Of a DNA stretch of 64,000 nucleotides, positions 10,959-33,723 are shown piece by piece. A program made the translations under genes and the position numbers. Source of the DNA: Spirulina sp. GTDB lineage: Bacteria; Cyanobacteriota; Cyanobacteriia; Phormidesmidales; Phormidesmidaceae. The stretch covers positions 1 to 64,000 of the forward strand of contig JBIPSI010000020.1 in NCBI GenBank assembly GCA_044070495.1. The letters are read 5' to 3'. The notes below the pieces were generated by a model. It was not told the origin of the DNA. It saw only the letters and a list, made by a program, of their open reading frames with translations, and made no database searches. The stretch's first letter is position 1. Each line of letters opens with the position of its first letter.

Positions 10959-11131
10959 CGGCAAGCCATTGAGGCCGTAGCCCTGCTTCCTGACCCATCC
11001 CCCTGTAGGTTGGGGGCCGCGACATGGAACCCGGCCCTCGCCTTAACGCAACCCATAGGTTTTGGGATTGCTGTTTTAACCTCCCCCGGCGGGGATTGAA
11101 ATATACTGGGCTAAAGTATGCCGATCTTCCC

Positions 11132-14476: not shown

Positions 14477-15256
14477 TTGGTCGTGGCATCGCCGTTTCCG
14501 GGAATGGATCCATACCTTGAAAATCCTGAGCTATGGTCGGCTGTCCATAGTCGGTTGATTGTGGCGATTGCGGATGAGCTGGTAGAGCATCTGAGTGAAA
14601 AGTATCGGGTTGAGGTGGAAAAACGGGTTTACTTCAGCAGCGATGATGGGAGTGTGTTGGTCGGTATTCCAGATGTTTCGGTGGCCACCAGCCGTTCAGC
14701 GAAATCGACAACGGGCACTGTGACATTACCCCTGCCGGTTCAGCCGGAAACCGTCACGGTGCCCCTGGCGGAAGAGGTTACTGAGCGGTATTTGGAAATC
14801 CGGGAAGTGGCCACGGGCATGGTGGTGACGGTAATTGAATTGCTGTCGCCTAAAAATAAGCGACCCGGTGAGGGGCGGATGGCCTACCTGCGGAAGCGGA
14901 ACCAGGTGCTGGCCAGTGTGTCGCATTTGGTGGAAATTGATTTGTTGCGAGGGGGCCAACCTTTACCCATAACCAGTGGCCATACCAGCGACTATCGAAT
15001 CTTGGTCAGCCAAGCTGATAGACGACCGAGGGCCGATCTGTATGGGTTTGACCTACAACAGCCGATTCCGCCCTTTCCAGTACCGCTGATGTCGGGGGAA
15101 GAGGCACCGATTTTGGCATTGCAGCCGCTGTTGAATCGGGTCTATGGGAAGGGGCGGTATCACCTGGCGATTGATTATGGTCAGCCGCCAGTGCCGCCGT
15201 TGGGAGAGGCGGCGGAAAAGTGGGCAACGACCCAAATCCAGAAGGCTCTGGGGTAG
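14477..15256 (+). CDS. DUF4058 family protein (restriction-endonuclease-like fold)
   Basis: SPFPGMDPYLE, VIELLSPKNK, HLVEIDLLRGG. Confidence 0.9.
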   Translation: MVVASPFPGMDPYLENPELWSAVHSRLIVAIADELVEHLSEKYRVEVEKRVYFSSDDGSVLVGIPDVSVATSRSAKSTTGTVTLPLPVQPETVTVPLAEEVTERYLEIREVATGMVVTVIELLSPKNKRPGEGRMAYLRKRNQVLASVSHLVEIDLLRGGQPLPITSGHTSDYRILVSQADRRPRADLYGFDLQQPIPPFPVPLMSGEEAPILALQPLLNRVYGKGRYHLAIDYGQPPVPPLGEAAEKWATTQIQKALG

Positions 15257-16058: not shown

Positions 16059-18290
16059 TTACTTTCGCTTTGAATTCTTGGCTCGCTCAAAAGCCGCTTT
16101 CATACTGGTGTTACCACCTTCATTAGAGGATGAGTGCTTATCTGACTTTTTTGGAGAGGAACGACCCTTACCTTTAAGCTTGGGTGGATCTGGCTTGCAG
16201 CGATTGCTACCTCCTGAACCTCCAGAATTTCGGGCTTCTATATCATCACATTTCTCCCAGCCAATTATTTGCAGAGGAGTTGGTAAAACAGGTCGATCGG
16301 CATACTCGTTTACCTTGCCTTTCTTTGGTGTACCAATGTGGTGTAAGCGCTCATCCCTCTCGATTTCCATATAACGAGTCTGATCAGGGGATGGAGCCTC
16401 ACCCCAACTCAGCAGTGCCAGGAGCATTTTGATCCGTCGAACTTCCTTTAGCGAAGCTTCAGTTGCTCCAATTTGATGACAAATATACTTATCAAATTCT
16501 TTAATATAATCGTCAGCCGAGTCAGGCTGATCATCATATCCTGTCAGCCACTTCTGTCCAACAAACAAGCCCTCATAGCGTTTCTTACACTTGCCCAAGT
16601 ACAAATGATGCGTAATCTTTACGGCTCCCATGCCTAGTGGCTTACCCATCCCTAGCGAGAATCGATATTTATCATCTTGGGCAAGATCCAAAGCCCAAAT
16701 CAAAGCTCCAAGTTCAACATTACTCAAATTCTCAAAATGCATGGAAAATGTGAATGAGACTCCTGCCTTGATGGGTTTGATTTCTGTGTACTGTGATTTA
16801 GCACTATTAATTTGCTCACTATCTGATTGTTGAATCTGACTAATATCTGTATCTTTCTTATGCCAGTACAGTTTATGGCCACGAATAACAGTTTCACCTG
16901 AACTATTAATACTTGGCGACTGGCTAGCATAATGTTTCAGTTCAGCCTTATCAGCATCGGTTTTTTCTGGCTGCACTAAATAATGTTGGAAAGTTGTTGT
17001 TTTAGGGCCACCAAGAATTTTTGGAATAATAGAATGTTCTGACAGCCAAATGCCATCTTTATCTTCTTGATAGATTGCATCAGTAATGCAAACTCGCCCT
17101 CTAAGACTTTGGTTATTCCGCTTAGATTGCTTTTCTTGACTCACAAACCCAAAAATACTATCTGCAATATCAATTATTGAAGGATCTCGTAAAGCTTCTG
17201 GCACAAAGTCAACGACACTAGACGCATGACCATTACCTTCGGGCGAATACGGAATACGAAAATTAGGACTTTGCCCGAAAAAACCGATTAAGTCGCTTTT
17301 TGACGGAGGATAGTAGAAAACTGGAACTGGTCGGTTTTCATTTAGCAGTCCCTTCTCGGCACTAAAAGGTGCATCTTTTTGAAAATCTGTAAGAGCTTTA
17401 CAATAGTGTTCGACAGCAATGTTATCAAGTCTTAGTTTTTCAGCTTTTTTATTTTCCTGGAAAACAAGGCAATTGTTACGTCTGGGCGAACGTTCATTAC
17501 CTTGCTTCATATTTCCACTTGTCACTAAAACTCCTTGATGATCTGGATAAACATCAGGAGAAGCAATGTCACTAGCAAATGTGCGTTTAGCACGATCTTT
17601 ATTATCCTGGGCAACTTTTCCGTAACTCACAGAAATATATTGAGGTCTATAATTTGACTGATCAAACTTAATCAATTCATCTACAGTAGTGTCTCTTTCT
17701 CGAACCCAAGCAAATGTTTTTCCTTGAACCTTTCGAGATGGCTGAATATACCAACCTTGAGAGTCTTTCCTGAGATATCCTGCTTGGACTTTATCGGGCT
17801 GAATATACTTTTTATATTCTTTTGCAGCAGATTCTACTTTGGGATTACCAGCAACTGCTCGAAAAAAAAGCTTTTCAGTATCAGACACACGTTCAATCTT
17901 GCTGAAACTTATAATTTCCAGTATGGTTCTCAACATCCCTCGTATGCTGCTACCAGGAATGCTCGGTAACATTTGCTGTGGGTATTTGAAAAAGTCAGTT
18001 AGTCTGTCTCTTTCCTCAGATGAACAAGTTTCTAAATCTTCAAGATTCGTAGACTTGCCATTAGTAAAGTCTAGAAGACTCAATCCACAGCGGATATACA
18101 GAGGGGACTCAGTAGTTAGGTTACACATAATCTTGCCTGTATGAAGATCAGGGTAGTAGCGATCTCCACTCGGCAAAGAATCAGGATCAGCAGTGACAAC
18201 TTTATCTGGTAGCTCCACAAAATTATAAGGAGCAACTGCTTTACGATCTTCTGGTACACACTTAATATGTTTTGGAAAAGTCATGATCAA
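16059..18290 (-). CDS. cas7: Type III-D Cas7 with large insertion (TIGR03986 RAMP)
   Basis: APYNFV, IPGSSIRGMLR, LGGPKTTTFQHYL, RGHKLYWH, LGMGKPLGMG. Confidence 0.93.
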   Translation of the reverse strand: MIMTFPKHIKCVPEDRKAVAPYNFVELPDKVVTADPDSLPSGDRYYPDLHTGKIMCNLTTESPLYIRCGLSLLDFTNGKSTNLEDLETCSSEERDRLTDFFKYPQQMLPSIPGSSIRGMLRTILEIISFSKIERVSDTEKLFFRAVAGNPKVESAAKEYKKYIQPDKVQAGYLRKDSQGWYIQPSRKVQGKTFAWVRERDTTVDELIKFDQSNYRPQYISVSYGKVAQDNKDRAKRTFASDIASPDVYPDHQGVLVTSGNMKQGNERSPRRNNCLVFQENKKAEKLRLDNIAVEHYCKALTDFQKDAPFSAEKGLLNENRPVPVFYYPPSKSDLIGFFGQSPNFRIPYSPEGNGHASSVVDFVPEALRDPSIIDIADSIFGFVSQEKQSKRNNQSLRGRVCITDAIYQEDKDGIWLSEHSIIPKILGGPKTTTFQHYLVQPEKTDADKAELKHYASQSPSINSSGETVIRGHKLYWHKKDTDISQIQQSDSEQINSAKSQYTEIKPIKAGVSFTFSMHFENLSNVELGALIWALDLAQDDKYRFSLGMGKPLGMGAVKITHHLYLGKCKKRYEGLFVGQKWLTGYDDQPDSADDYIKEFDKYICHQIGATEASLKEVRRIKMLLALLSWGEAPSPDQTRYMEIERDERLHHIGTPKKGKVNEYADRPVLPTPLQIIGWEKCDDIEARNSGGSGGSNRCKPDPPKLKGKGRSSPKKSDKHSSSNEGGNTSMKAAFERAKNSKRK

Positions 18291-18297
18291 CTCCTTG

Positions 18298-20329
<2,032 letters not shown>

Positions 20330-20333
<4 letters not shown>

Positions 20334-21952
20334 TGTTGATTCTCCTTCGTGGCTTGCTTAGCAACTGCCATAATCAGTCTTAATGTGTACTCAATCAGTA
20401 ACGGATCATCAGCATTACCGCTATTTAGACTACGATTAATATTGCCACTCAAACTAATTTCCATATCTGAATCAGGTAGGTTTAACCAGCTATGTGGAGA
20501 ACTCATCCAGGTTTTGATTTGCTCATATAAAGGTATATTACCCCTATCAAAATGGGAAGCCTGAAATTGTTTTAGAGCAGTTTTTGTTAGGTTCTTTTCA
20601 TCCAGAAGATCCTGTATGGGTTGTAAGCTGCCAATCGCTAAGCCTTGGCGGGCAGCAAGCCTTAGTCTAGAAAGTTGGCTGTTTGAAATAGGAATTGTGC
20701 CGTTAGCATCTTGCTTTAACTTGCTAACATCAAGCTGCTTCTTGAGCTTTTGCTCTAAGCGTTGACGTAGCAATTGTTCTGCCATGAAATTTGCTAATTG
20801 AGTTGAGCCAATCGTATATTTCTGTTCTCTAGCGCGAATTTGAGGTGGTCTTTGAATATTGAAATTTGCTTTTCGATGCCAATTTACAGCTACACGGCCA
20901 AATCCTTCATTGCGGCGGTCGCCAATTCCTTGCCATTGCAATTGCTGAATTTGCTCGTCTGTCAGTTCAGCATCTTCAAACACCACCACTGTTCCAGCAG
21001 ATAAAGTGGGCAATTGAGGCAGTGGTAAACCCCACTTACGGTTGAATCCGCCTACAAATGTACTGCTGCTAAAGATATTTTTGGGTTCTGGAGAAAGTAA
21101 AGCACTTTCACAGGCGTTATTGATCGCCACATTTAGCAAATGTGGATTAGCTGTGGGCTGCCCACTAGCGTCAGATAGAATTGCGTCACTGAGAAGAATG
21201 ATAGTTAAATGCTCTGTCTCATCATCCTCTTCTAAAAATGCGTCAGTCTCTTGCCAGTTGTCATCCGCTATCTCATAGGACAACTTTGTATGACCGTAAC
21301 CAGCGCTACGGGAACCACCAAGCCACAAGTCTGGCTCAGCTAGAAGTTCTTCAAACCAAGAGACATCCTGTTCTTCACAAAGAACTACGGACTGAAAGGT
21401 TTGCCCACTATCTAGTGCATCGTAGCGGAAGATTTCGCCTTCACTGCTAGGTTGATCTTCCCGTTTGCTGGAACGACCTTTACGGCGATCACGGGTATTG
21501 TGGATGTTAATGCGCCGTTCAGGAGCATATAGTCGGATACAACCCTCTTCAAAGACACAAAACCCACCTCGAATGACTTTCAGAGAGTCTTCTTCATCAA
21601 CATATTCCAAACTCCGGTCGTAAATATTAGTTGCTGTATCTTTTGAAATTTCCGTATCCTTTCGTTTATACCAGGATCGAGGTATGGGTAGTGTGCGATG
21701 CTGTTCTTGCTTGCTGACCAGATAGGCATTGAGGTAGCGTGTGCTGTGAGATGCAAAGAAAAGACGCTGCGTCTCTAAATCATCTAAATTAAGCTCATTT
21801 AATCCCTTCTGCTTCAGATAGCGACCAATCAAGGCACCCCGAATCATGCTACCTGGAATATAGTCATAGGAGACATCACTATTAGGATCACCCTGAAATG
21901 AAGTGGCCAGGATGGGTTGCAAAGTTTTGATGGTGACTAGAATAGCTGGCAT
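20330..21952 (-). CDS. csx10: Csx10-type Cas5 RAMP with a C-terminal Cas11-like helical domain
   Basis: YIPGSMIRGAL, LGGSRSAGYG, GIGDRRNEGFG; C-terminal ISNSQLSRLR helical region. Confidence 0.85.
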
Positions 21953-21955
21953 GGT

Positions 21956-22609
21956 TTATGCCTCCTGAACAGCAAAAAAGCGATCAAGGTAATTTGTGGG
22001 TAGGGGTGCTCCATCAAGGTTACAGCATACGTGGCCGCGTCCCCGGTTGCGACCGCTGCCCAGATAACGAAGGGCTTTGGCTCCAGCCATCAGTAAGCAA
22101 AGCTGATTATCTGTCGATTGCTGCTCAAAATAGATGTGAGCCGTAAAGATCAGGTCTCTCAATACAACACGAGCAGAGCGTAAACTGCCTCGATCTGGCA
22201 CTCCTGTTTCAGGATTGATAGCGGTTTGGCGGCGAATTGTGGTGAGAGAATTCAGAATTTCAGTTTTGGTTAATTTTTCTTGGCTAATTTGGTAGGCAAC
22301 GGCCTGACGTAAATCCTCTGGTAAACGAGCATTTCCGACATGAATCGCCCCCGTAGTGTCCACGGTGCTGCCGGGTTTGCCAAACAATTCTCCGGCAACA
22401 AGTTGCCAATCAGGTTTCTGATTACTGGGCAACGCATAAATTAAATTGTCGCACTCTTCGCTTAATAGGCCTTTGAGCGTCCGTCCACGCAAATAGGGAA
22501 ATCCATAGGGATCATGTTCAACTTCCTGATCAATTAAGCCAGCCACACCATCTCCTCTGCCAAAGGTAGTGTCACTGAGTAAATGAATGTTGAGCGTATA
22601 AGTTGACAT
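21956..22609 (-). CDS. cas7: Stand-alone Cas7 (Csm3-group) RAMP
   Basis: LLSDTTFGRG, GFPYLRGRTLKGLL, TAIN..TG, LGSGRNRGRG. Confidence 0.88.
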   Translation of the reverse strand: MSTYTLNIHLLSDTTFGRGDGVAGLIDQEVEHDPYGFPYLRGRTLKGLLSEECDNLIYALPSNQKPDWQLVAGELFGKPGSTVDTTGAIHVGNARLPEDLRQAVAYQISQEKLTKTEILNSLTTIRRQTAINPETGVPDRGSLRSARVVLRDLIFTAHIYFEQQSTDNQLCLLMAGAKALRYLGSGRNRGRGHVCCNLDGAPLPTNYLDRFFAVQEA

Positions 22610-22780
22610 CTAGTGACTCTCCTGTTGTCGTAGTGCGTGCAGAAATGCTTTGAAGGTCATGCACAGACGAGGGCGACCGACAACTATTGCAATCAGAGTT
22701 TCATATTGCTGCCAGCTCACATGGGGCAGAAAAACTCGCACCTCGCTAAATGGGTCGAGTAGTTTTGCTAGCCTACTCAT
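22610..22780 (-). pseudogene. 56-aa internally deleted Uma2/DUF820 remnant, not in the ORF track
   Basis: Hand translation MSRLAKLLDPFSEVRVFLPHVSWQQYETLIAIVVGRPRLCMTFKAFLHALRQQESH; ATG overlaps the cas10 TGA and the TAG abuts the cas7 ATG. Confidence 0.65.
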
Positions 22781-24402
22781 TGGCTCACCTCCAGAGGAAT
22801 ATAAAAATCCATCGCCTCAATCGCATCGAAATAACCGCAGGTAGTATCCAGCCACCCCTGTTCTGCCAGTGGGGATTTTAGCCTGTGATCACTGCCAGGC
22901 ATAATAGGAAGGGTTTCTAACTGATAGGCCGTTAAAAACTCTTTGGTTGCTGCTGGCCCTCGTCGCAGCACTTCTCGTAAAGCCTTTACCTTATTACGCT
23001 TATCTTTCCAACCTTCTCCTTCAAATTCTTTGATAATAGATTTAAAATTCTCCCAGTTTCGCCAATCACCAAGATTACCAGCTAACAAGAGCGGTCGCAT
23101 TTCTAGAGGTTTATTGTCTTGACTACGATACTCTCGTTCCCGAATCTCTGTCAGATCGCCTAGCAAGCCACTAGCCGCGATATGCCAGTCTATGGCAGAT
23201 ACAGGTTCAGGGCGCTCATTGTCAAGGATGCGATCATGCTTTGCGATCTTTTTAGCAGATCGACACAGTGCTTCGCTGAGTTCATAGGCTCTAGCGAATG
23301 GGTAATGTGCCTTAACGATACAAACTCCGGCACAAGCAGTCAATTTTTTCCCGTCAGCAGCTTCTTGATTTTCAAATTCTTTCAGATATCGAGTAGCTAA
23401 AGTTAAACCAATACGTCCATCACAAACAAAGGTGACATCATCACCGCCATATACTAGAGGTCGAAATGGCAAATATTTATCTTCATGAATTCGGAAACTC
23501 TTCTTAAATGTCTTAATAGGGTTTCCACCTTGATCTACATCATCCTCAATTCCATCAACGACTGCTCTGGCGACTATTTCGAGTGCTTTCATCCCTGCCT
23601 GTTTTACACTCTCAGATAGCTGCCGCATACAAGCAATATATTCTGGATCAGACTTACCTCTGCCAAATTCCTGGAATCTTTTTCCCATGCTGTTGCCATC
23701 AATATGAACAACAGCGATGTAGCTCATTTCACCTTTTGAACGTCCAAAATCATCAAAGTCTCGCGGAATATCCCAAGGATTTGGTCTTTTAGAATCAAAA
23801 ATCGTTTGCTTCAAATCTTGATTGGCTAAGATAACAGCTTGTAGCTTCTTTCCAATTTCGCGTGAGATTGGATAAGGCGCGTGTTCCTTTGGCATCTCGT
23901 ATTCAGGAGATTTGCTGGTATCTACAGCAACTAATCGAGTAGATTGACAATCTGCTGTAACTCCAAGACCTAATAATGGGGAAGAGGGAATGCGCGATCG
24001 CTTTTTCACATCTAGGTCATGTTTCATCATCTCCTGAACTGTATCGTAAAGCTGTCTTTTATCCCACTCAAAATCATGGCGATGAGCAGCAACTAGGTTA
24101 ACCCCTGGGGCTTCTTTCAGAACTTTAAGACTGAGCTTTTTAGTAAACTCAATGGCAAGTTCAGCCGACTTAAACAGCAAGACTGTGTTACCGCCTCCGG
24201 CATATACTAGCCTTGCATCTTGAGTTTCAATCGAGGCTTCAGGGTCTTCAATCCCAAATTCCTCGTGTAAAATCTGCTTAACCCAGGCATCCGTTACCTG
24301 CCCAACCAGGTAGGACGCGCCAATGTTTTCCCGCAGGCGGTTGCTGCCAAAAATATAGGACTGAATTCCAGTGGTATCAAGAACCGTCACAGTTAATTTC
24401 AT
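22777..24402 (-). CDS. cas10: Cas10 lacking the HD domain, cyclase Palm motifs intact
   Basis: DTTGIQSYIF, YAGGGN, HIDGNSMG, LVYGGDDVTF, HYPFARAY; 541 aa. Confidence 0.95.
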   Translation of the reverse strand: MKLTVTVLDTTGIQSYIFGSNRLRENIGASYLVGQVTDAWVKQILHEEFGIEDPEASIETQDARLVYAGGGNTVLLFKSAELAIEFTKKLSLKVLKEAPGVNLVAAHRHDFEWDKRQLYDTVQEMMKHDLDVKKRSRIPSSPLLGLGVTADCQSTRLVAVDTSKSPEYEMPKEHAPYPISREIGKKLQAVILANQDLKQTIFDSKRPNPWDIPRDFDDFGRSKGEMSYIAVVHIDGNSMGKRFQEFGRGKSDPEYIACMRQLSESVKQAGMKALEIVARAVVDGIEDDVDQGGNPIKTFKKSFRIHEDKYLPFRPLVYGGDDVTFVCDGRIGLTLATRYLKEFENQEAADGKKLTACAGVCIVKAHYPFARAYELSEALCRSAKKIAKHDRILDNERPEPVSAIDWHIAASGLLGDLTEIREREYRSQDNKPLEMRPLLLAGNLGDWRNWENFKSIIKEFEGEGWKDKRNKVKALREVLRRGPAATKEFLTAYQLETLPIMPGSDHRLKSPLAEQGWLDTTCGYFDAIEAMDFYIPLEVSQ

Positions 24403-25706
24403 CGGCCCACCTCCGCATCACTCTCTCGAATCCAACCAATGACTTCATCGGCAAAGTTAGCCAGATGCTTACGCCCAAAGAGTCTAATTTGCTTTTGTGA
24501 CAGAAGGTTACCCATTTCAGAGGCTAATCCGCCTAAGTCGTCATTGAAACAAAATAGGGCTACTCTTGCTTCACTGCCGCCAAGTTGCTGCGATCGCAGG
24601 TAGGCTTCAAATAGTTTCGATTTGCATAAACTGCGATCTGATGTTGTCGTACAGGAAATTGCGAACAGTTGATAGCCGTAGGTAAACGCTACATCAAATT
24701 CAAATCCCTCCTGAGTGCCTTCTAATGGAACTTCAAAGTTCAGTCCATAGTCAGAAATACCAGCTTGATTGACAATTGACTGAATATCGCCAAGAAGATA
24801 GTGTTCTAGCCATATACCGTCTAGCCATTTGCAAAAGTGCTGAAGATCTTGAAAGCTTGGATGCTTGTGAACAAGTTCGAGGGAGAGGTCGTCATCTTGA
24901 TTCAGAAAACCCTCTTGCTGAAATCCTCCTAAAATTTCCTTCGGCAAACAAGTCGTTGGAAACGATAGTCCCCTGAGATCAGTTTTTGATTTCCAATTAC
25001 CTAGTTTTCCACCTGTCTTTTTAGGTTTTCTTGCCGCCTGGCTAGAATCACCATCTCCCTCACAGAAGATTGAGTAGAACCAATGAAACCAAGCTCTTCC
25101 TTTCGTTGTATCTTTATGAACTTCAGCTAGTCGAGTTGCCAGATTGAGTAGAAGTGGATCTTTAGCGGGTTGCTTATTGTCTTTCCACTTGAGTCCATGA
25201 AGCTCAAAAAGTGTGCTAAGGCTAATCGTGACATCTTTTGAGTAAATAGGAATTCTGAGACTTTCGCCCCCTTCGTTATCAATGCATATCTCTAGCCGTC
25301 GCGGGTCAAGATAGCTAAAAACTGCTTGCTGCCCCTTCTCCTTTATCTCTCTGAAGACAGCGCGATAGGCATGGACTGCCATGGCTTTCGTTCCGCCCGT
25401 ATAATTCAGTCCGACTTGATCATTCAAATTCTTCAGAACTTGCTGAATTCTTGCTTGAATTTGATAAGCGTCAGACTCGTATTTTTCAAGAGAAACTAAT
25501 TGGGCTAACTGAAAATCAGCTAACTCGTTCTTCAAAATCTTTGCCAGACGATTAGCCGATCTTTCAGTTCCAGTGGTATAGACCAGATAGGGAGTGCCAC
25601 CTTGTTTGAGCAGTAGTCTGGCTGCCACGTAGTTGGGCAAAGGATTTTCGCCGATTAGTAGAAAAAGATGATCAACTTGGTACGGACTAAATTTCGAGCC
25701 ACTCAC
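24399..25706 (-). CDS. Card1/DUF1887-like CARF plus restriction-endonuclease-fold effector
   Basis: LLIGENPLPN, LNYTGGTKAM (CARF); DGIWLEHY, EFDVAF, AISCTT (nuclease); GTG start at 25706 with an AGGAG ribosome-binding site. Confidence 0.85.
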   Translation of the reverse strand: MSGSKFSPYQVDHLFLLIGENPLPNYVAARLLLKQGGTPYLVYTTGTERSANRLAKILKNELADFQLAQLVSLEKYESDAYQIQARIQQVLKNLNDQVGLNYTGGTKAMAVHAYRAVFREIKEKGQQAVFSYLDPRRLEICIDNEGGESLRIPIYSKDVTISLSTLFELHGLKWKDNKQPAKDPLLLNLATRLAEVHKDTTKGRAWFHWFYSIFCEGDGDSSQAARKPKKTGGKLGNWKSKTDLRGLSFPTTCLPKEILGGFQQEGFLNQDDDLSLELVHKHPSFQDLQHFCKWLDGIWLEHYLLGDIQSIVNQAGISDYGLNFEVPLEGTQEGFEFDVAFTYGYQLFAISCTTTSDRSLCKSKLFEAYLRSQQLGGSEARVALFCFNDDLGGLASEMGNLLSQKQIRLFGRKHLANFADEVIGWIRESDAEVGR

Positions 25707-25732
25707 GTTTTTTCTCCTTAATGTTTTCTGAT

Positions 25733-26662
25733 CTATGCTTTTCCTGCTAACAATGTCTCGACCTGTTCTAGGAGGACACCGGGGATGCCGTCGGTGGCTC
25801 CGCGCAGCCAGGGGCCGCAGGTCATTTCCAAAAAGGGTTGGCGGCGATGGACTTGCAGGGATCGATCTAGGGTGCTGTGGATAACGGCAACGGGTTTGAG
25901 GTTGCCTCGGTCGCGGCAAAATTCGTGCCAGGGTTCGATGGCGTCGGGGTTGGCGCTGATGACGAGGTAATGGGAGCAGGCATCGAGCAGGGGCAGTTTG
26001 GTGTCTTGCACCTTGCCGCCTACATCGACCAGCACCAGGGGCTTTTGGCGACGCAGTGCCAGGATGCCCTGGGCCTGCCAGGAAAAGAAGCGTTCGCTGG
26101 GGCCACCCTTGAAGGCGCGTTTGAAAGTTTCTTGCTGGTCGGCGGTGGCGTTGTCGGGCAGTTCTAGTAGCCAGTTGCCTTCGCCATCCCAGTTGGCCCG
26201 CTGCAAAAAGGTATTGGGGTGGCGGGGCAACAAAGCTTGGAAGAGGGCATGGCTGAGGACGGATTTGCCGCTATCGGGGGGGCCAACGATGAGCAGGGCG
26301 GCCCCTAGGCGCGGGGGCAGGGGCGTTTGGGGCAGGGGCACCACTTGGCCCACGGTGGCTTGGCGAGAGTGGGTGGCCACGACCACACCTCCCCCCAGGC
26401 GCGGGTCGTAGCAGGCGACCCAGGCGGTGGGGTGCAGTTCATGGACGAGGTGGGCGTAGAGCCAGATCGGGGCACGTCCATTGATGACCACGCCGCCGGT
26501 GGTGTCGATGCCCGCTGGCAGGGTCAAATCGACCAGGTCGCAGGGTTCGATCAGGCGGTCGGGGCTTGTGAGATCGATGGTGAGAACTTGATAGGCAAAT
26601 CCTTGGTGGGTTTGGGGTGCGCTCAGGCTGAGATGAATAGAAGACGGAACCTCGAAGGTCAT
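25733..26662 (-). CDS. csx3: Csx3/Crn3 ring nuclease fused to a P-loop NTPase-like domain
   Basis: GVVINGRAPIWLY, ACYDPRLG..VVVATH (Csx3); GPPDSGKS Walker A, WDGEGNW, VLVDVGG. Confidence 0.88.
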   Translation of the reverse strand: MTFEVPSSIHLSLSAPQTHQGFAYQVLTIDLTSPDRLIEPCDLVDLTLPAGIDTTGGVVINGRAPIWLYAHLVHELHPTAWVACYDPRLGGGVVVATHSRQATVGQVVPLPQTPLPPRLGAALLIVGPPDSGKSVLSHALFQALLPRHPNTFLQRANWDGEGNWLLELPDNATADQQETFKRAFKGGPSERFFSWQAQGILALRRQKPLVLVDVGGKVQDTKLPLLDACSHYLVISANPDAIEPWHEFCRDRGNLKPVAVIHSTLDRSLQVHRRQPFLEMTCGPWLRGATDGIPGVLLEQVETLLAGKA

Positions 26663-26725
26663 AGCTACCTCGTCAACGGACAGAATCTAACGATCCATAG
26701 ATGGCTCTGTCGTGGTGTCGCCGCT

Positions 26726-26760
26726 ATTATGGCACACCCTTGGAAGAGACCCCTTCCAAG
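26726..26760 (-). promoter_or_regulatory. Predicted interference-operon promoter: inverted repeat CTTGGAAG-N6-CTTCCAAG plus extended -10 (TGnCATAAT)
   Basis: Inverted repeat at 26739-26760; CATAAT on the minus strand at 26731-26726, 7 bp away. Confidence 0.7.
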
Positions 26761-26989
26761 ATGTTGAGGTGACGTTGAGAGGATGAAACGTTCTGGACTG
26801 GGACATTGTGGCGTGGGTTGGCGTGGGGCCGTGCCGGGGGCGGGCGAGGATGGGGATAGTTTTCGATCATAATTTCAAGGGAATTATTACTGAGGATGCC
26901 CGCTTCTCCTTGGGGAAATAACGGATTTTTCTGCACAGTTTTTCGTAGTTTTGTTGGCTTTTTTAGCGTGATGTTGCGGCGGCTTAACA

Positions 26990-28465
26990 ATGACTCCATT
27001 TCTTCATGCTCCAACTCCTCGGTTGCTTCAGTGGCTTAGCGGTGGCACCCTGGCATTGCGGCTGCGGCGCACCCTGCGGGGCTGGGTGTGGCTGCGGTTG
27101 ATCTATGGCGATGGGGCTTCACCCCTGGTGGATTTGCCGCCCACCTTTCGCTATGGGCCAGTGCGAGATCGCGTGTTTGCCCCCAGCCATCCCCGCGCCG
27201 ATGGGGCCACGGTGGCGGATATGCAGCACCGTTGCGGCGGCAGCCATTGCCTGTGCCAAACCCCCACCCATGCCCTGCTGTTTCAGCACCATCCCCCCTT
27301 AAATAAGGCGGACTGGGTGGCGGAAATGGCGGATCTGAGCGGCTTCAGTGCCGAGGCGGTGGAGGAGGAACTACGGGACTGCGCCTTTGCCACGGTGCAT
27401 CGCACCCTGCGGGACGACCTGGCTTGGCTAACCAAACTGGGCTGGCTGGAGTCGGCGGGGCGGGGGCAGTGGCGTAAAAAAGCCCCCAAAGATTGGCCAA
27501 CCTTGCCTGAGCACCTTTCAATGGGCTATGGGCCGCCAGAACTCTCGCCCCAGGAGCAGCAGAGTTTGTTGGGGGTGCTGGAGGAAATAGCCTTTTTGCG
27601 GCCCCAGTTGGCAGTGGTGGTGGATACCCTATGGCAGCGCATTACCCCTCAACCCCAGACCCCCTTGCCCCTGGATCGACCTCGACGGTTGTTTGTGCAT
27701 TTAGACTATGTGCTGTCCCAGGATGCCCAGGAACAGGTGGATCAGCACCAGCATGATCTAGAGCAGCTTTGGCACAGCCCAGAGGGAGGCGTGGTGCAGT
27801 TTGACTATTTCAGTGCGCGGCGACAGCGGCAAACCCAGGTCACCGCCTACCCCGTGTGTTTGCACTATGCCCGTCGGGCCAAATATCTCACGGTGTTTGG
27901 CACCACGCCTAAAGGAAATCTGGACTGGTGGAACTATCGCCTCGACCGGATTACCTCCCCCCGGCTGCACCTGTTGCCCTGGGGCGATCCGGCCATTCCC
28001 GATGACCTCAAACAGCTTCGCCAACGGGGCAACCTGCCCACCCCCGCAACGGTGGAACGCCACCTAGAAGAAGCCTGGGGGTTTAATTTCTACCTGCCCA
28101 AGGCGCTGTTGATTCTGCGGTTTAGCCCCGATTTTGCCCGTTGGTATGTGGATGGCACCGACCGCCACCCCACCTTTGCCCCGGTGGACTATGGCAACCT
28201 GCCCAAGCTAATTGCCGATCATGCCCCCACCGCCGACCAAGACCACCTCTTGGCCCTAGTGGCAGATCGTTCTCCCCACGACCGTTACTACCAGGGCTGG
28301 ATTCGGGTAGGGGATACCAACGTCACCATGCGCCTACGCGACTGGCGACCCCAGGGCGAGGTGATTGCCCCCTGGGTGGTGCGCCAACAGATGATCGCTG
28401 AGGCGGAACAGGAGTTAAGGCAATACCGAGGTTCAGTAGATCACAAACATGCCCTTTTGCCGTGA
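26990..28465 (+). CDS. TIGR03985-family CRISPR-associated WYL-domain protein, putative regulator
   Basis: HRTLRDDL..L...GWL (winged HTH), YPVCLHYARRAKYL, NYRLDRI (WYL), AWGFNFY, YVDGTDRH. Confidence 0.88.
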   Translation: MTPFLHAPTPRLLQWLSGGTLALRLRRTLRGWVWLRLIYGDGASPLVDLPPTFRYGPVRDRVFAPSHPRADGATVADMQHRCGGSHCLCQTPTHALLFQHHPPLNKADWVAEMADLSGFSAEAVEEELRDCAFATVHRTLRDDLAWLTKLGWLESAGRGQWRKKAPKDWPTLPEHLSMGYGPPELSPQEQQSLLGVLEEIAFLRPQLAVVVDTLWQRITPQPQTPLPLDRPRRLFVHLDYVLSQDAQEQVDQHQHDLEQLWHSPEGGVVQFDYFSARRQRQTQVTAYPVCLHYARRAKYLTVFGTTPKGNLDWWNYRLDRITSPRLHLLPWGDPAIPDDLKQLRQRGNLPTPATVERHLEEAWGFNFYLPKALLILRFSPDFARWYVDGTDRHPTFAPVDYGNLPKLIADHAPTADQDHLLALVADRSPHDRYYQGWIRVGDTNVTMRLRDWRPQGEVIAPWVVRQQMIAEAEQELRQYRGSVDHKHALLP

Positions 28466-28605
28466 TCCAGCCCTCACCCTAAATCCCTTTCCCAATGTGG
28501 GAGAGGGACTTTGAAGTACTTTCGGCTCCCCTCTCTCCGTGGGAGAGGGGAGCCGCTTCAGTATTCCGGTTCCCTCTCCCTGTGGGAGAGGGCTAGGGTG
28601 AGGGC
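28432..28605. repeat. Repeat family A copy in inverted orientation, overlapping the 3' end of the WYL gene
   Basis: TCAGTAGATCACAAACATGCCC...CCCTCACCCTAAATCC matches the reverse complement of the right end of 33525-33683. Confidence 0.75.
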
Positions 28606-28943
28606 TTTTGGGGATCTGGCTAACAAGTTTTGTCAGTCAATCAACCACCTGACTGAAAAGATGGGGCAACAGATCCAAATGCCCTGTGATAGACAGAGTA
28701 ATCAATGGAGTTGCGTTAACGACTGCTTTCATAACCGCTAATGAAGCTGCTACCAAGCACTGGTATCCCTGATTGCCTGACACATCTCCAAAGTCGATTG
28801 GGTGCAGCGAAGCGGAACCCAACACTCGCCGCGAATGGTGGGCTTGTTGGGTTCTGCCAACACAATCAGCAACTCATTCGGAAAGGCAACATCCATCAGC
28901 CGTCCAGAGAGACACCGCTCCTATCCTACAGTTTCTATCTTCC

Positions 28944-29297
28944 TCATTCCTCATCCCGGCGGGGTAGGGATTGCCGGGGAGAATCTCCCTCAGAAATTCG
29001 GTTCCAGAAATCGCCCTCGTTGGCCATTTCTCCGCGTTGGGGTGGCCCCTGGCGGTTAGGATCGCCAAACCGAATGGATCGGGGGTCGTTATTCATATCG
29101 TTCAGCAAGGCGTTGAGGGCCAAATCGCCCAAGAAGCCCGTCGCCAAGCTGGCCAAAAACACCATCACCGTACAGTTGATCACCGCAAACAACCCCAGGG
29201 GCGCAATGATCAAAATCACCCAAGTAATCCCTGCATTTGCCAAGGCCACCATCACATTGCGGTAGCGCACCAATTTTCGAGCCAGTGATCGAGACAT
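28944..29297 (-). CDS. csx18: CRISPR-associated membrane protein Csx18
   Basis: RN..VA..NAGIT.VILIIAPLGL.AVI with two TM helices; divergent from cas1. Confidence 0.8.
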   Translation of the reverse strand: MSRSLARKLVRYRNVMVALANAGITWVILIIAPLGLFAVINCTVMVFLASLATGFLGDLALNALLNDMNNDPRSIRFGDPNRQGPPQRGEMANEGDFWNRISEGDSPRQSLPRRDEE

Positions 29298-29364
29298 CGT
29301 CAAATCTCCCTAGAACATTGCGTTAAGACCAATCGCCCTCAGGCCCATCGCCTCAAGACACCCC

Positions 29365-29412
29365 ACTATAACCATCTCTTGGAAGGGGCATCTTCCAAGG
29401 GCCTGCCATAAT
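29365..29412. promoter_or_regulatory. Predicted bidirectional csx18/cas1 promoter centred on CTTGGAAG-N6-CTTCCAAG
   Basis: Inverted repeat at 29378-29399; CATAAT (+) at 29407-29412 and TATAGT (-) at 29370-29365, each 7 bp from it. Confidence 0.7.
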
Positions 29413-29424
29413 TGAGCCGCCTGA

Positions 29425-29457
29425 AGATCCCAGGGTTCTTGAAGAACCCTGGGATCT
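29425..29457. repeat. 33-bp palindrome AGATCCCAGGGTTCT-TGA-AGAACCCTGGGATCT
   Basis: Perfect 15-bp stem; 32/33 identical to 12786-12818. Confidence 0.9.
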
Positions 29458-29596
29458 AAATCTCAGGACAATCCTCCCTAGAGGATTTCGGCTTTGAGCC
29501 AAGGATTTCTAATCCTCGGCTCTCCGGCCACCGCCAGCAGGGAGTGAACTCCCTGGCTGATAGCTGAAGTCTGCTGACGCAGACTGGGGGGTATCG

Positions 29597-29640
29597 CCAA
29601 CAACCAACAACCAACAACCAACAACCAACAACCAACAACC
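29597..29640 (+). repeat. Heptamer tandem repeat (CCAACAA)x6, STRR-type, directly before the cas1 ATG
   Basis: Read directly. Confidence 0.9.
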
Positions 29641-30651
29641 ATGACCACCCTCTACCTCACCGAACCGGGCACCGTTGTCCAATGCCGCAATGAAACGCTG
29701 GTGATTAAGCGCCAAGGCAATCGCCAAACCCTACGGTTGGTGGAGGTGGGGCTATTGGTGGTGTTGCCGGGGGTGCAGCTTACATCCCAAGCCCTAGCGC
29801 AGTTGATGGATCGGGGCATTGAAACGCTGTTTCTCACCCGCAGCGGCCAGTTTCGGGGGCGGCTTCAGGGGCAGTTTCCCACCAATCCTGCCATTCGGTT
29901 GGCCCAATATCGCACGGTGGAAACGCCCTTTGGCTTGGCCTTGGCCCAACGGCTGGTGGGGGGCAAAATTGCCAATCAGCGGGCGCTGTTGCAGCGGCGC
30001 AACCGGGCCACCAGGGGCACTATCGGCGAACTGTCGGAGGCGATTGATGCCATTGCCGCCTACCGAACCACCCTAGACCACACGGAAACGCCCCTCAGCC
30101 GAGAGGAACTGATGGGCATTGAGGGCATCTGTGCGCGGGCCTATTTTCAAGGGTTGCGCCACTATTTCGACCCCCGCTGGCAGTTCCAGGGGCGCAATCG
30201 TCGGCCCCCGCTGGATCCGGTGAATGCGTTGCTGAGTTGGGGCTATGGGGTGCTGCTGGCGCGGGTGTTTGCGGCGGCGGTGCAGGCGGGGCTAGACCCC
30301 TACCTGGGCTTTTTCCATGCCATCGAACCCTATCGGCCCAACCTGGTGCTAGACCTGATGGAGGAGTTTAGGCCGCTGGTGGTGGATCAGGCGGTAATTG
30401 CCATTTTGAATGAGGATGTGCTGTCGCCGGAGGATTTTGAACCCTCGCCGGATGGGGCCGGAATTTGGGTGGGGGCGGTGGGCAAAAAGCTGTTTTTGGC
30501 GGCCCTAGAAAAGCAACTGCGCCAAACTACCGACTACCCGCCCCAGGGCCGACGGCTGAGCTATGGCCAAATTATTCTAGAGCAGGCCCGCTGGGTGGCG
30601 CGTTGTTTGGTGGATCGTCAGCTTGCCTATGAACCGATGCGTCTGCGGTGA
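29641..30651 (+). CDS. cas1: CRISPR-associated integrase Cas1, no RT or Cas4 fusion
   Basis: LMGIEG..AR.YF, RRPPLDPVNALLSWGY, GLDPYLGFFH, LVLDLMEEFRP. Confidence 0.97.
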   Translation: MTTLYLTEPGTVVQCRNETLVIKRQGNRQTLRLVEVGLLVVLPGVQLTSQALAQLMDRGIETLFLTRSGQFRGRLQGQFPTNPAIRLAQYRTVETPFGLALAQRLVGGKIANQRALLQRRNRATRGTIGELSEAIDAIAAYRTTLDHTETPLSREELMGIEGICARAYFQGLRHYFDPRWQFQGRNRRPPLDPVNALLSWGYGVLLARVFAAAVQAGLDPYLGFFHAIEPYRPNLVLDLMEEFRPLVVDQAVIAILNEDVLSPEDFEPSPDGAGIWVGAVGKKLFLAALEKQLRQTTDYPPQGRRLSYGQIILEQARWVARCLVDRQLAYEPMRLR

Positions 30652-30935
30652 AGCCTATGCTATGGCTAATTTGCTACGATGTGGCCGATAATAAGCGCCG
30701 CCAAAAGCTGGTAAAGCTGCTGGAACAACGGGGCCAGCGGGTGCAGTATTCGGTGTTTGAATGCCCGCTGGAGGAGAAGGAACTGCGCCAGTTGCTAGAA
30801 AAACGCTGGCTGAAGGTGCTGAACTTGCGGGAGGATAATCTGCGGATTTATCCCCTCGATGAAACGGCGAAAAAACGAACGCTGGTGTTTGGTGGCCCGC
30901 CGCCCTATGAACCACCGGACTACGTGATTTTGTAA
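30648..30935 (+). CDS. cas2: CRISPR-associated Cas2
   Basis: LICYDVAD.KRR, RVQYSVFEC, DNLRIYPL. Confidence 0.96.
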   Translation: MKPMLWLICYDVADNKRRQKLVKLLEQRGQRVQYSVFECPLEEKELRQLLEKRWLKVLNLREDNLRIYPLDETAKKRTLVFGGPPPYEPPDYVIL

Positions 30936-31274: not shown

Positions 31275-33131
31275 GTCAGATACCCTCAATTCCCCGCAAG
31301 GGGACGGAAACGCTTAATGACGGGGATGCCGACTAGTGGGAGTCTTTGAGGGTCAGATACCCTCAATTCCCCGCAAGGGGACGGAAACACGAATGGTTGG
31401 AAAGCAACCCTAAAAACAAAAAACAGCAAGTCAGATACCCTCAATTCCCCGCAAGGGGACGGAAACTGGTTGGAAAGCAACCCTAAGAACAAAAAACAGC
31501 AATTCTGTCAGATACCCTCAATTCCCCGCAAGGGGACGGAAACAAGCCGACGTTGCGGCCTTGCGTTTGGCGTTAGTGGCAGAGGTCAGATACCCTCAAT
31601 TCCCCGCAAGGGGACGGAAACGACCAAGGTAACGACGAAAGCGGTAGCCACGGCACCATAGACCGTCAGATACCCTCAATTCCCCGCAAGGGGACGGAAA
31701 CCTAAACCGGGAGGCCGTGTCAATCTCGAAGGGTCCCAAGTCAGATACCCTCAATTCCCCGCAAGGGGACGGAAACTGTTCTGGATTATCAAGGCCTCGA
31801 TCCTGCAAAGGATTTCGTCAGATACCCTCAATTCCCCGCAAGGGGACGGAAACCCATCCCCCATGCCTACTACTGGGGGTGGTATGTGTATGGTCAGATA
31901 CCCTCAATTCCCCGCAAGGGGACGGAAACCATGCTAGCATTTAGCCAACTGGGAAAGTAAGACTTGAGTCAGATACCCTCAATTCCCCGCAAGGGGACGG
32001 AAACTAGGTCTCGCTGCAAACTCAAAACGTCTTCGTGTGCCGAGAGTCAGATACCCTCAATTCCCCGCAAGGGGACGGAAACGGACACGGATCTACTCTC
32101 GCACAAGTCTAAGAGGACTTGTCAGATACCCTCAATTCCCCGCAAGGGGACGGAAACGGCGGCAGCTTGCCGGACTCGTAGGACGGGATGACCTGTCAGA
32201 TACCCTCAATTCCCCGCAAGGGGACGGAAACTTCGTCTGTTCGGGCTTTTGCCCGGAGGGCGTTCTCAGTCAGATACCCTCAATTCCCCGCAAGGGGACG
32301 GAAACCAACCCGACCGCCGGGGGTGGTGATTTCGATCCAGTCGTCAGATACCCTCAATTCCCCGCAAGGGGACGGAAACCGCCTGAAACCATACCGTTAC
32401 TTTTGTCGGTGCCTGTTGGGTCAGATACCCTCAATTCCCCGCAAGGGGACGGAAACTGCCGTAGCGGATGATTTCGGCCACCTGCGCCTCTAGGTCAGAT
32501 ACCCTCAATTCCCCGCAAGGGGACGGAAACAATCCTAGCTCAAGATGCTGCCGCAAAGCGGTATTGTCAGATACCCTCAATTCCCCGCAAGGGGACGGAA
32601 ACCAACCTAATGGTTATGGCTTTCTTACCTTCATCATTCAAGTCAGATACCCTCAATTCCCCGCAAGGGGACGGAAACAGAGAATTAATGGACTTAGAAT
32701 TATGCAACCTCCAATGCGCTGTCAGATACCCTCAATTCCCCGCAAGGGGACGGAAACCCATACCCTGACTCCATCACGTCGGCTTGCTCACCACGTCAGA
32801 TACCCTCAATTCCCCGCAAGGGGACGGAAACAAACTACTAGGACACCTCCAATTGAAATCTCAATCTCTTTTGTCAGATACCCTCAATTCCCCGCAAGGG
32901 GACGGAAACTCCATATAGAGATTGCCGAACAAAACAAACTTAAAGTCAGATACCCTCAATTCCCCGCAAGGGGACGGAAACTACTCTGGCAATATAAGCT
33001 AATAAACTTTCTGCGTCTGGGTCAGATACCCTCAATTCCCCGCAAGGGGACGGAAACCCGTAGACGAACTACTCGATAAACTACCCAATGCTGTGTCAGA
33101 TACCCTCAATTCCCCGCAAGGGGACGGAAAC
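31275..33131 (+). CRISPR. Main CRISPR array: 25 identical 37-nt repeats GTCAGATACCCTCAATTCCCCGCAAGGGGACGGAAAC and 24 spacers of 35-43 nt
   Basis: Counted by hand; TCCCC-GCAA-GGGGA hairpin and GAAAC 3' end set the orientation. Confidence 0.99.
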
Positions 33132-33158
33132 GAATTGGATTTAGGATAAGCCCCATCC

Positions 33159-33488: not shown

Positions 33489-33524
33489 AGAAACACCCCG
33501 TATTCTGAAGCCTAATGTCCTAGC

Positions 33525-33683
33525 CTCAGTAGATCACAAAGTCCCTGCTAGCCCTCACCCCCAACCCCTCTCCCACGAGGAGAGGGGAGCCGGAAACGGC
33601 CTTCAAAGTCCCTCTCCCCACGGGAGAGGGATTTAGGGTGAGGGCTGGATCGCGGCAAGAGAGCATGTTTGTGATCTACTGAG
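33525..33683. mobile_element. 159-bp MITE (family A) with 16-bp terminal inverted repeats and a 14-bp flanking direct repeat
   Basis: TIR CTCAGTAGATCACAAA at 33525-33540 and its reverse complement at 33668-33683; CCTAATGTCCTAGC at 33511-33524 and 33684-33697. Confidence 0.85.
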
Positions 33684-33723
33684 CCTAATGTCCTAGCCTA
33701 CTATCCTTAAGCCTGCCCCAGCG

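Follow-up and report, generated by a model that had tools for sequence, protein, structure and literature searches.

A candidate operator of TIGR03985-family WYL regulators at the promoters of a cyanobacterial type III-D CRISPR-Cas locus

A 64,000-nucleotide stretch of DNA from Spirulina sp. (assembly GCA_044070495.1, contig JBIPSI010000020.1, positions 1 to 64,000 of the forward strand; the whole of this stretch is called the window here) carries a cyanobacterial type III-D CRISPR-Cas locus, and within this locus the gene of a WYL-domain protein of the family TIGR03985 lies between two copies of a 22-bp palindrome. We regard it as very probable that the WYL protein whose gene the two copies enclose uses this palindrome as its operator. 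The assignment is based on the association of the site with the WYL gene across different neighbourhoods, the uniqueness of the site in the genome, the match between a dimeric protein and a palindromic site, and the known behaviour of the family. The wider statement, according to which the palindrome is the TIGR03985 operator and the bound protein activates transcription, has in our estimate about an even chance of being correct.

A literature search retrieved no published binding site for the TIGR03985 family (supplements lay outside the search), which agrees with the first-pass annotation of this DNA, in which no defined site was known. Shah et al. (2018) described an 'HTH-WYL' type III-D accessory cluster and listed Csx18 as 'adaptation associated' (PMC6546367), and WYL regulators of CRISPR loci were predicted by Makarova et al. 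(2014; PMC4012209). That a WYL transcription factor has a palindromic operator is already known; the new elements are the motif itself, where it stands in the promoter and how broad the candidate regulon is. The pattern TGGAA-N8-TTCCA, with its variants TAGAA, TTGAA and CGGAA, is the first candidate binding motif for TIGR03985 regulators, and the candidate regulon, which extends across at least 33 genera, includes csx3, cas10, Card1-like genes, cas1-cas2 and csx18. The switching-on of type III CRISPR-Cas loci and the coupling of spacer acquisition to interference are both poorly known, and the motif gives a directly testable operator for binding, reporter and knockout work. Moreover, from the geometry of the sites one would expect that a WYL factor linked to defence may act as a DriD/PafBC-type activator rather than a repressor, which, if true, would change the picture of the WYL regulators of defence islands.

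The palindrome, its promoters and its distribution in relatives

According to the first-pass annotation, a palindrome with identical 8-bp arms and a variable 6-bp spacer flanks the WYL gene on both sides, and three -10 boxes that face csx3, cas1 and csx18 lie 7 bp from it. A direct reading of the sequence and a pattern search bear out both statements. The palindrome CTTGGAAG-N6-CTTCCAAG occurs at 26739-26760 (O1) and at 29378-29399 (O2), the arms of the two copies are identical and their spacers are different, and the distance from hexamer to arm is exactly 7 bp in all three cases (26732-26738, 29400-29406 and 29371-29377). The sites, their -10 boxes and the genes that adjoin them are as follows.

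O1, 26739..26760 (no strand): CTTGGAAGAGACCCCTTCCAAG; in the gap between the divergent csx3 and WYL genes; the WYL start codon follows 230 bp downstream
O2, 29378..29399 (no strand): CTTGGAAGGGGCATCTTCCAAG; in the divergent gap between csx18 and cas1
Extended -10 box facing csx3, 26726..26734 (minus strand): ATTATGGCA on the plus strand, TGCCATAAT on the minus strand; predicted start ~26719
Extended -10 box facing cas1-cas2, 29404..29412 (plus strand): TGCCATAAT; in the 43-nt inverted duplication; predicted start ~29419
-10 box facing csx18, 29365..29370 (minus strand): ACTATA on the plus strand, TATAGT on the minus strand; predicted start ~29358
csx3, 25733..26662 (minus strand): 309 amino acids; TIGR02579 at E 1.2e-28 and Pfam Cas_csx3
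TIGR03985 WYL regulator gene, 26990..28465 (plus strand): 491 amino acids; NCBIfam TIGR03985 at 337.2 bits
csx18, 28944..29303 (minus strand): NCBIfam NF040558 at E 3.9e-25
cas1, 29641-30651 (plus strand): NCBIfam and Pfam
cas2, 30648-30935 (plus strand): NCBIfam and Pfam

Two or more matches to the palindrome were found in none of 100 dinucleotide shuffles of the window, even when two mismatches were allowed (mean 0.07). O1 and O2 are contained in an inverted duplication of 43 nt (26719-26761 versus 29377-29419, 84% complementary), and the promoter-operator units of csx3 and cas1 are therefore copies of one another. The -10 boxes of these two genes are TGn-extended, and all three boxes in the window stand at offset 10 from the core of the palindrome. 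A two-hexamer sigma-70 scan of 26500-29800 returned no promoter-like site, a result that fits promoters without a -35 box and yet leaves the -10 boxes as their sole support.

Whether the palindrome belongs to a repeat that is dispersed through the genome had been raised in the first-pass annotation, and this explanation is rejected. In the complete assembly (5,313,730 bases in 74 contigs, with the window as C20:1-64000), the full palindrome has two perfect copies, both in the locus, no copy with one mismatch and a single copy with two mismatches (C31:1085). Each 8-mer arm by itself, by comparison, is common (78 and 74 occurrences), and what sets the site apart is therefore the pairing of the arms.

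In a sample of 401 genomes from the phylum, 61, this one included, have a match to the TIGR03985 model above its cut-off. For comparison, we collected approximately 8 kb on each side of 66 TIGR03985 genes from 58 genomes and 39 genera (1.06 Mb together with the window; loci are given by L numbers); the 15 weakest or partial TIGR03985 rows (≤71 bits) were omitted, and the regulator gene is cut or disrupted by open reading frame (ORF) calling in five of the 66 loci (L067, L089, L093, L094 and L095). The exact core TGGAA-N8-TTCCA occurs 43 times in this set, where approximately one occurrence is expected at equal base frequencies, and in a first, smaller set T and A flank 17 of the 18 matches to GGAA-N8-TTCC. 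With at most one mismatch, the core is present within -260..+20 of the regulator start in 28 loci from 21 genera. A 24-nt matrix trained on these 28 sites, from which the window was excluded, yielded 67 matches of at least 16 bits in 67 regions, compared with 4.05 ± 1.75 in 20 first-order Markov simulations. At this threshold, 50 of the 66 loci (33 of 39 genera) have a match; in 36 loci from 23 genera a match lies within -400..+30 of the regulator gene, and in 23 of these 36 it is located at -60 to -82.

When this matrix, built from relatives only, was applied to the whole Spirulina genome, O2 ranked first (23.5 bits) and O1 second (21.8 bits), and the third match scored 20.0 bits; this match and most of those that follow lie inside ORFs. 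Within the locus, the scan found only O1 and O2 and no site at cas6, at the CARF gene or at the array leader. Further regulon members at C2:236102, C13:25470 and window position 38993 were considered and rejected, all three being inside long ORFs. An 18.9-bit site, TGGAAG-N6-CTTCTA, is intergenic at C45:30159 (L119, ~6160), between genes for a family-2 glycosyltransferase and an AAA_35-domain protein; it has a TATCCT box at offset 10 and no CRISPR link, and it may be due to chance.

The 67 sites have 134 flanks. In 47 of these flanks a TAnnnT box starts 9 nt from TTCC, and in 22 it starts 10 nt from it (69 of 134 in total); every other offset from 0 to 29 accounts for 0-5 flanks each, except for offset 2, which has 16 and reflects a clade-specific flank. 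Such a box is found on at least one side of 50 of the 65 non-window sites (29 of 33 genera), against a background of 0.036 per flank, and on both sides of 18 of them (14 genera). If the -10 hexamer is taken as -12 to -7, the palindrome spans approximately -38 to -21 with its centre near -30, and the promoter-proximal TTCCA half-site falls at approximately -26 to -22. Because of the fixed 9-10 nt to the TAnnnT box, the operator would cover the -35 position of promoters that have no -35 box. The partner -10 boxes in the relatives include many weak ones (TACGCT, TAACCT, TAATCT), which have neither a -35 box nor a canonical TGn.

The sequence of the half-site varies among the relatives. Close relatives of the window protein (42-47% identity) often have TAGAA...TTCTA or TTGAA...TTCAA, a CGGAA...TTCCG variant is found in one clade, and a change in one arm is usually accompanied by the same change in the other. 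The second position of the half-site seems to be tolerant, because one locus (L048) carries both a TAGAA and a TGGAA site. A covariation between recognition helix and half-site was looked for, and no clean pattern emerged: the helix (ATVHR, GVTRR or AQVRK) follows the clades, and a TGGAA site accompanies an AQVRK helix in L077. Since the half-site variants mix within clades, no claim about specificity is made from the helix. Separately, on plasmid pSYSA of Synechocystis (L031, ~74976-74990), a GAA-N9-TTC palindrome, TGAAAAACTGGTTTTCT, is situated approximately 50 bp upstream of the family member sll7078, with a TATAGT box 10 nt to its right that faces slr7080; it may be a diverged operator whose spacer is one base longer.

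The genes that adjoin the sites in relatives include CRISPR-Cas genes. Divergent pairs of csx3 and the regulator with a site between them, as in the window, are found in L034, L037, L038 and L040, and csx3 and the WYL gene form a conserved divergent pair in the nearest clade of the window; in two loci (L034 and L037), no more than 21-26 bp separate the site from the start codon of the regulator. Other sites adjoin csx3 or Csx3-domain genes (L058, L068, L069, L055, L066, L041, L061, L050, L095 and L067), cas10/cmr2 (L048, L057, L062 and L093), genes for Card1-like CARF nucleases (L068, L073, L077, L081, L084 and L051), NYN-domain genes (L053 and L062), cas1 (L045), a TIGR02221 gene (L066) and cas6 (L091). 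A hydrolase, a TPR protein and unknowns are among the remaining divergent neighbours of site-bearing WYL genes. The layout of O2 recurs in L035, where a TAGAA variant in the gap between csx18 and cas1 has -10-like boxes at offset 10 on both sides, and that of O1 has counterparts in L033, where a variant of the palindrome upstream of csx3 stands beside the same ATTATGGCA box as in the window, and on plasmid pNe_2 of Nostoc edaphicum CCNP1411, a culturable relative, where TAGAAG-N6-CTTCTA (record positions ~15189-15206) lies between crn3 and a TIGR03985 gene beside a TGGCATAAT box. In all three fetched loci with cas1 in range (L035, L045 and L053), a site is present upstream of the adaptation genes. 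Three genomes (L078-L080) have operator-like sites in another kind of neighbourhood, 2.7-2.8 kb downstream of the regulator gene and between a gene for an HtpX-like protease and one for a reverse transcriptase of the group-II-intron type, with TAnnnT boxes at offset 10 on both sides.

The site is judged to work in trans, because in two genomes where csx3 and the regulator are on different contigs (L107 and L108) the palindrome is present upstream of csx3 or of a small ORF that precedes csx3. A comparison between loci with and without TIGR03985 had been proposed in the first-pass annotation, and a control of this kind agrees with the proposed link: of nine csx3 loci from genomes without a TIGR03985 match, only one has a site. 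In the other eight, which represent only three genera because six of them come from one genus, neither a site of at least 13 bits nor a generalised palindrome was found near csx3. The ninth (L106, genome G248) has a 22.8-bit site 60 bp upstream of a TIGR03985-like ORF beside csx3. This ORF (3390-4117, 222 amino acids) matches the window regulator over the N-terminal 153 residues of the latter (E 9e-8, 27% identity), and by its alignment it is a truncated TIGR03985 family member, either a decaying regulator gene or the product of an assembly frameshift; it was missed by the NCBIfam model because the model covers the C-terminal part of the family and the ORF only the N-terminal part. Not every csx3 belongs to the regulon, since no site accompanies the short csx3 genes of genus g5 that stand apart from the regulator gene, in genomes with the regulator as well as in genomes without it.

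The regulator and the sign of its action

The window protein matches NCBIfam TIGR03985 at 337.2 bits against a cut-off of 60 (model positions 1-249, residues 232-480) and Pfam WYL (PF13280) at E 1.5e-5 (residues 268-325). Pfam WCX gave no match in the window protein itself at E ≤ 0.01; among 46 aligned family members, WYL is found in 44 and WCX in 19. In the AlphaFold model (46-row alignment; predicted local distance difference test, pLDDT, 87.9), the domain layout is a winged-helix-like N-terminal domain, a three-helix linker, WYL and WCX. The top Foldseek matches are DriD (E 6e-10), PafBC on RNA polymerase (9fnd, 1e-8), DriD-RNA polymerase complexes, CapW (1e-5) and BrxR (4e-5), and VIA-align superimposes residues 232-482 on DriD 127-327 with Z 12.3 and an rmsd (root-mean-square deviation) of 3.8 over 191 residues, which make up the core of three-helix bundle, WYL and WCX. 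The protein is predicted to be a homodimer: the dimer model scores 0.51 versus 0.00 for the best control, with contact agreement of at least 53%, partner pLDDT of at least 75 and an interface at residues 444-481; this mark is reached by 20 of 30 solved pairs and one of 23 single chains, and the pass may reflect likeness to solved WYL dimers.

The N-terminal 180 residues (26990-27529) are modelled with a pLDDT of 93.9 and contain, within 106-163, three helices (106-149) and a hairpin (153-163). No Foldseek match was obtained for this domain at E ≤ 0.001, and its best VIA-align match is the winged helix of DpnI (Z 5.3, rmsd 2.5, 75 residues), among top matches that are nearly all winged-helix domains (Fur, PerR, IclR, MarR and cullin WHB). 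We read the domain, from its model, as a winged helix with an insert of approximately 65 residues. The insert itself (residues 40-105), a region without a Pfam family, holds H67, C87 and C89, which are near-invariant across the family and could be a metal or redox site.

The following mechanism is proposed. A dimer of the winged-helix/WYL/WCX protein would place one winged helix on each TGGAA half-site, at operators that are centred approximately 30 bp upstream of the predicted start of promoters with a -10 box and without a -35 box. O1 would serve the csx3-cas10 effector operon, and O2 would serve csx18 and cas1-cas2 in opposite directions; because the two operators together serve all three promoters, one protein would govern csx18, interference and adaptation jointly. 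Binding of a signal to the WYL domain would free or position the winged helices, and the bound dimer would then help RNA polymerase onto weak promoters. Such ligand-dependent activation is in our view the most likely mode, a judgement we hold with even confidence for and against. It is favoured because the operator sits at -35 as in DriD and PafBC, the spacing to the -10 box is fixed, -35 boxes are lacking and many of the -10 boxes are weak. The geometry of the sites shows the DriD/PafBC architecture, with a site over -35/-26, a constant distance to the -10 box and no -35 box. The CapW/BrxR architecture, with an operator over the -10 box or the start, is not seen, as the sites end 7-8 bp upstream of the -10 hexamers; this lowers the case for a CapW-like regulator and is still compatible with repression by occlusion of the -35 region.

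Activation could also be part of a larger circuit, an idea to which we attach only a small probability. TIGR03985 proteins would be activators that respond to infection and thereby complete a feedback loop of type III CRISPR immunity, with the WYL domain sensing a product of the response, either cyclic oligoadenylate (cOA) made by Cas10 or nucleic-acid fragments. The dimer at -35 would switch on the effector complex, the cOA-handling genes (the Csx3 ring nuclease and Card1-like nucleases) and spacer acquisition, so that adaptation would be boosted exactly when interference is engaged; the protein would be a bacterial, WYL-based counterpart of archaeal Csa3 that works through a bidirectional form of the DriD/PafBC mechanism. 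The idea arises because the gene divergent from the regulator is so often a gene of the cOA pathway. One WYL factor is described as sensing c-di-GMP (PMC11880434).

Several points weigh against an activating TIGR03985 protein at this operator. With regard to the site, 28 of the 67 matrix matches are the training sites of the matrix itself, and the locus counts overstate independence because the loci are related to one another. No match of at least 16 bits is present in 16 of the 66 loci, several of which carry TAGAA or TTGAA variants beyond the reach of the matrix, and the relevant gaps around Synechocystis sll7078 (29% identity) on pSYSA contain no GGAA-N7/8/9-TTCC. With regard to the protein, the N-terminal region has no Pfam helix-turn-helix (HTH) domain in the window protein or in family members, and its fold matches are weak (Z ≤ 5.3, a range that VIA-align calls uninformative), nearly all of them being winged helices. 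In the window, the right flank of O1 reads AGGTGA, and because the regulator gene thus has no -10 box at the standard distance, the self-regulation seen in relatives may be absent or different here. Finally, the two strongest promoters of the window have a TGn-extended -10 box. Promoters of this kind can work without a -35 box or an activator, and they suit a repressor better. The defence-linked WYL regulators that have been studied, CapW and BrxR, are repressors (for CapW, PMC11662680), and knockout identifies Sll7009 of Synechocystis as another (cited in bioRxiv 10.1101/2023.12.07.570523; PMC10212523).

The last of these points belong to the alternative that survives best, in which the same protein at the same operator is a repressor like CapW, BrxR and Sll7009. 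We consider this a serious possibility, at somewhat under even chances. A dimer over the -35 region would block RNA polymerase at promoters that are active by themselves, such as those with an extended -10 box in the window, and a ligand on the WYL domain would release the dimer and de-repress interference, adaptation and csx18 together. Release of this kind has a precedent in CapW, which single-stranded DNA releases (PMC11662680), and the knockout of Sll7009 raises the level of CRISPR RNA (crRNA), according to the two citing papers named above. The TGn-extended boxes of csx3 and cas1 point in the same direction, as does the position of most sites in the upstream region of the regulator itself, an arrangement typical of negative self-regulation; where the site is so close to the start codon, as in L034 and L037, the bound protein would block its own transcription. 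However, a repressor has no need of the strict spacing of 9-10 nt seen in 69 of 134 flanks, and the published CapW site contains the TATAAT box (PMC11662680), whereas the sites described here stop short of the -10 box. Furthermore, the many weak partner -10 boxes in relatives imply little activity to repress, and the closest structural matches, DriD and PafBC, are activators.

A second alternative is that the site is read by another binder, such as the N-terminal extension of Cas6, the domain fused to Csx3 or a global regulator of the host, and that the closeness of the WYL gene is incidental. The first-pass annotation had proposed that all three modules are switched together by the TIGR03985 protein or by an HTH of Cas6. 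The WYL half of this proposal is supported by the sites upstream of TIGR03985 genes in 36 of 66 loci and 23 genera, the sites at csx3, cas10, Card1-like and cas1 promoters, the spacing of 9-10 nt to the -10 boxes and the top two matrix ranks of O2 and O1. The Cas6 half is not supported: Pfam and NCBIfam see only Cas6 domains and no HTH family in this protein, no site is near cas6 in the window, and the neighbour common to the loci is the WYL gene. Within the nearest clade, the conserved pairing of csx3 with the WYL gene makes the site unassignable to either gene, but across the family the site is found upstream of WYL genes whose divergent neighbours differ. No site lies near the CARF gene of the window either, and a global regulator would be expected to have many good sites, whereas the two best sites in 5.3 Mb are both in the locus. 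In five other genomes, the bare 10-base core occurs 56 times, and eight of these occurrences are within 12 kb of a WYL gene, although the core is about as common there as its reversed control (39). We consider another binder very unlikely.

The least probable explanation, to which we give hardly any weight, is a nucleic-acid structure (an RNA hairpin, an attenuator or a cruciform) or a relic of the 43-nt duplication, without any regulatory protein: the arms could pair into a stem of 8 bp closed by a loop of 6 nt, the symmetric arm changes (TAGAA/TTCTA, TTGAA/TTCAA and CGGAA/TTCCG) would also preserve pairing and both window copies lie in one inverted duplication, but the sites are upstream of the -10 boxes and would not be transcribed from the promoters that they flank, no T-run follows them and a terminator scan lists none there, 33 genera share the actual sequence of the GAA/TTC core, together with the N8 spacing, and not only the ability to pair, the fixed distance to the -10 box on both sides points to action on DNA at promoters, and the presence of the site at non-homologous promoters (cas10, cas1 and Card1-like genes) rules out a simple local relic.

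The CRISPR-Cas locus and repeated elements near the sites

NCBIfam and Pfam profiles identify the locus as type III-D by Csx10, Csx19, Csx7-like and TIGR03986 RAMPs, Cas10 palm2, Cas1 and Cas2. Beyond the genes that adjoin O1 and O2, the locus contains the following features.

cas6, 11024-12256 (plus strand): Pfam and NCBIfam Cas6 domains
TIGR02710 CARF gene, 12982-14331 (minus strand): from the profile search; in the upstream part of the locus
Type III-D effector genes downstream of csx3, 16059..25919 (minus strand): NCBIfam and Pfam
CRISPR array, 31276..33132 (plus strand): 25 repeats of 37 nt

The csx3 product, a Crn3 ring-nuclease domain fused to a longer protein, is encoded by the first gene downstream of O1 on the minus strand. 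The effector genes on the same strand encode a TIGR03986 RAMP, Csx19, a double Csx7-like RAMP, Csx10, a further RAMP, the C-terminal part of Cas10 and a 506-residue ORF; from their common strand and tight spacing, we infer that they form one operon with csx3. Cas10 appears to be split or highly diverged in the window. The 506-residue ORF (24399-25919) has only a borderline match to Card1-type CARF proteins, and since 187 nt of the ORF as listed are shared with csx3, its true start is probably further downstream. At 7571-8200, some kb upstream of the CRISPR locus, a gene resembles acetyltransferases of the Vat family (streptogramin A / xenobiotic), with 288.9 bits against a curated cut-off of 300.

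Several repeated elements are found in the same region. A perfect palindrome of 33 bp with 16-bp arms (29425-29457) lies in the predicted leader of cas1, a few bases past the predicted start; it is a dispersed element, its 15-mer being present 60 times in the genome, and cas1-cas2 might be served by it as an attenuator or a hairpin in the leader. A tandem repeat of the heptamer CCAACAA (6.4 copies, 29597-29641) abuts the cas1 ATG, and contigs C1 and C2 have similar tracts; the repeat could be prone to slippage or could give the adaptation genes an unstructured leader. Elements that resemble miniature inverted-repeat transposable elements (MITEs), rich in CCCTCACCC / GGGAGAGGG hairpins, occupy 28426-28600 and 33509-33699, and their 65-nt arms (28429-28493 and 33622-33686, 92% complementary) flank the module of csx18, cas1, cas2 and the array. 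The first of these arms overlaps the last codons of the WYL gene, and the C-terminal tail of the WYL protein is modelled with low confidence.

Comparison with known regulators

The best structural match of the window protein is DriD of Caulobacter crescentus, a homodimeric activator with the layout winged HTH (wHTH), three-helix bundle, WYL and WCX. DriD binds as a homodimer to a pseudo-palindrome of approximately 21 bp, over the -35 position of promoters without a -35 box, with the spacing to the -10 box kept constant (PMC13004042, PMC9186387); the same would hold for the candidate operator described here, where the dimer is taken from the model. One DriD site is located 10 nt from the start codon of driD, in the gap to a divergent operon (PMC9186387), much like the sites of L034 and L037. 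However, the window protein is only 14-16% identical to DriD, the half-sites differ (ATACGAC-N7-GTCGTAT in DriD versus TGGAA-N8-TTCCA here), and the 70-residue wHTH of DriD contrasts with an N-terminal domain of approximately 170 residues that includes the insert of approximately 65 residues with its conserved His and Cys. The DriD regulon consists of DNA-damage genes, whereas the candidate regulon here consists of CRISPR-Cas genes.

PafBC, the mycobacterial WYL activator that works by 'sigma adaptation', is the second structural match, through its complex with RNA polymerase (9fnd, E 1e-8). Its promoters have a canonical -10 box, no -35 box and a -26 element at -23 to -28 (PMC8635444), and the proximal half-site here falls at approximately -26 to -22. 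Unlike the TIGR03985 protein, PafBC is a heterodimer-like fusion in which one HTH reads a non-palindromic element; the sites described here are symmetric, and 18 of 65 have -10 boxes on both sides.

CapW and BrxR, the wHTH-WYL-WCX repressors of CBASS and BREX, bind as dimers to palindromes of approximately 20 bp and are encoded beside the defence operon that they control, in both of which the window protein would resemble them; the order of its domains, as modelled, is the same. In the fold searches they rank below DriD and PafBC (E 1e-5 to 4e-5, Z 8.5-9.5). They differ in being repressors, and the published CapW site includes TATAAT (PMC11662680), whereas the sites here are 7-8 bp upstream of the -10 box.

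Sll7009 of Synechocystis PCC 6803 is likewise a cyanobacterial WYL protein encoded beside a CRISPR-Cas locus, the type I-D CRISPR1. Genetic evidence, as reported in citing papers, indicates that it controls crRNA levels (bioRxiv 10.1101/2023.12.07.570523, PMC10212523), and its binding site is described as similarly undefined, with action possible at any of three promoters (PMC10212523). In contrast to the regulator described here, it belongs to a type I-D system and is a repressor by knockout, according to the same citing papers. Nor is it detectably a member of TIGR03985, as sll7078 is the only match on pSYSA at E ≤ 1e-5 when the window protein is the query of a tblastn search.

A functional parallel outside the WYL proteins is archaeal. 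Csa3a and Csa3b of Sulfolobus are CARF-HTH proteins, ligand-sensing factors encoded in the locus itself that tie adaptation and interference genes to one sensor. They differ from TIGR03985 proteins in that the sensor is a CARF rather than a WYL domain and that the promoters and the motif are unrelated.

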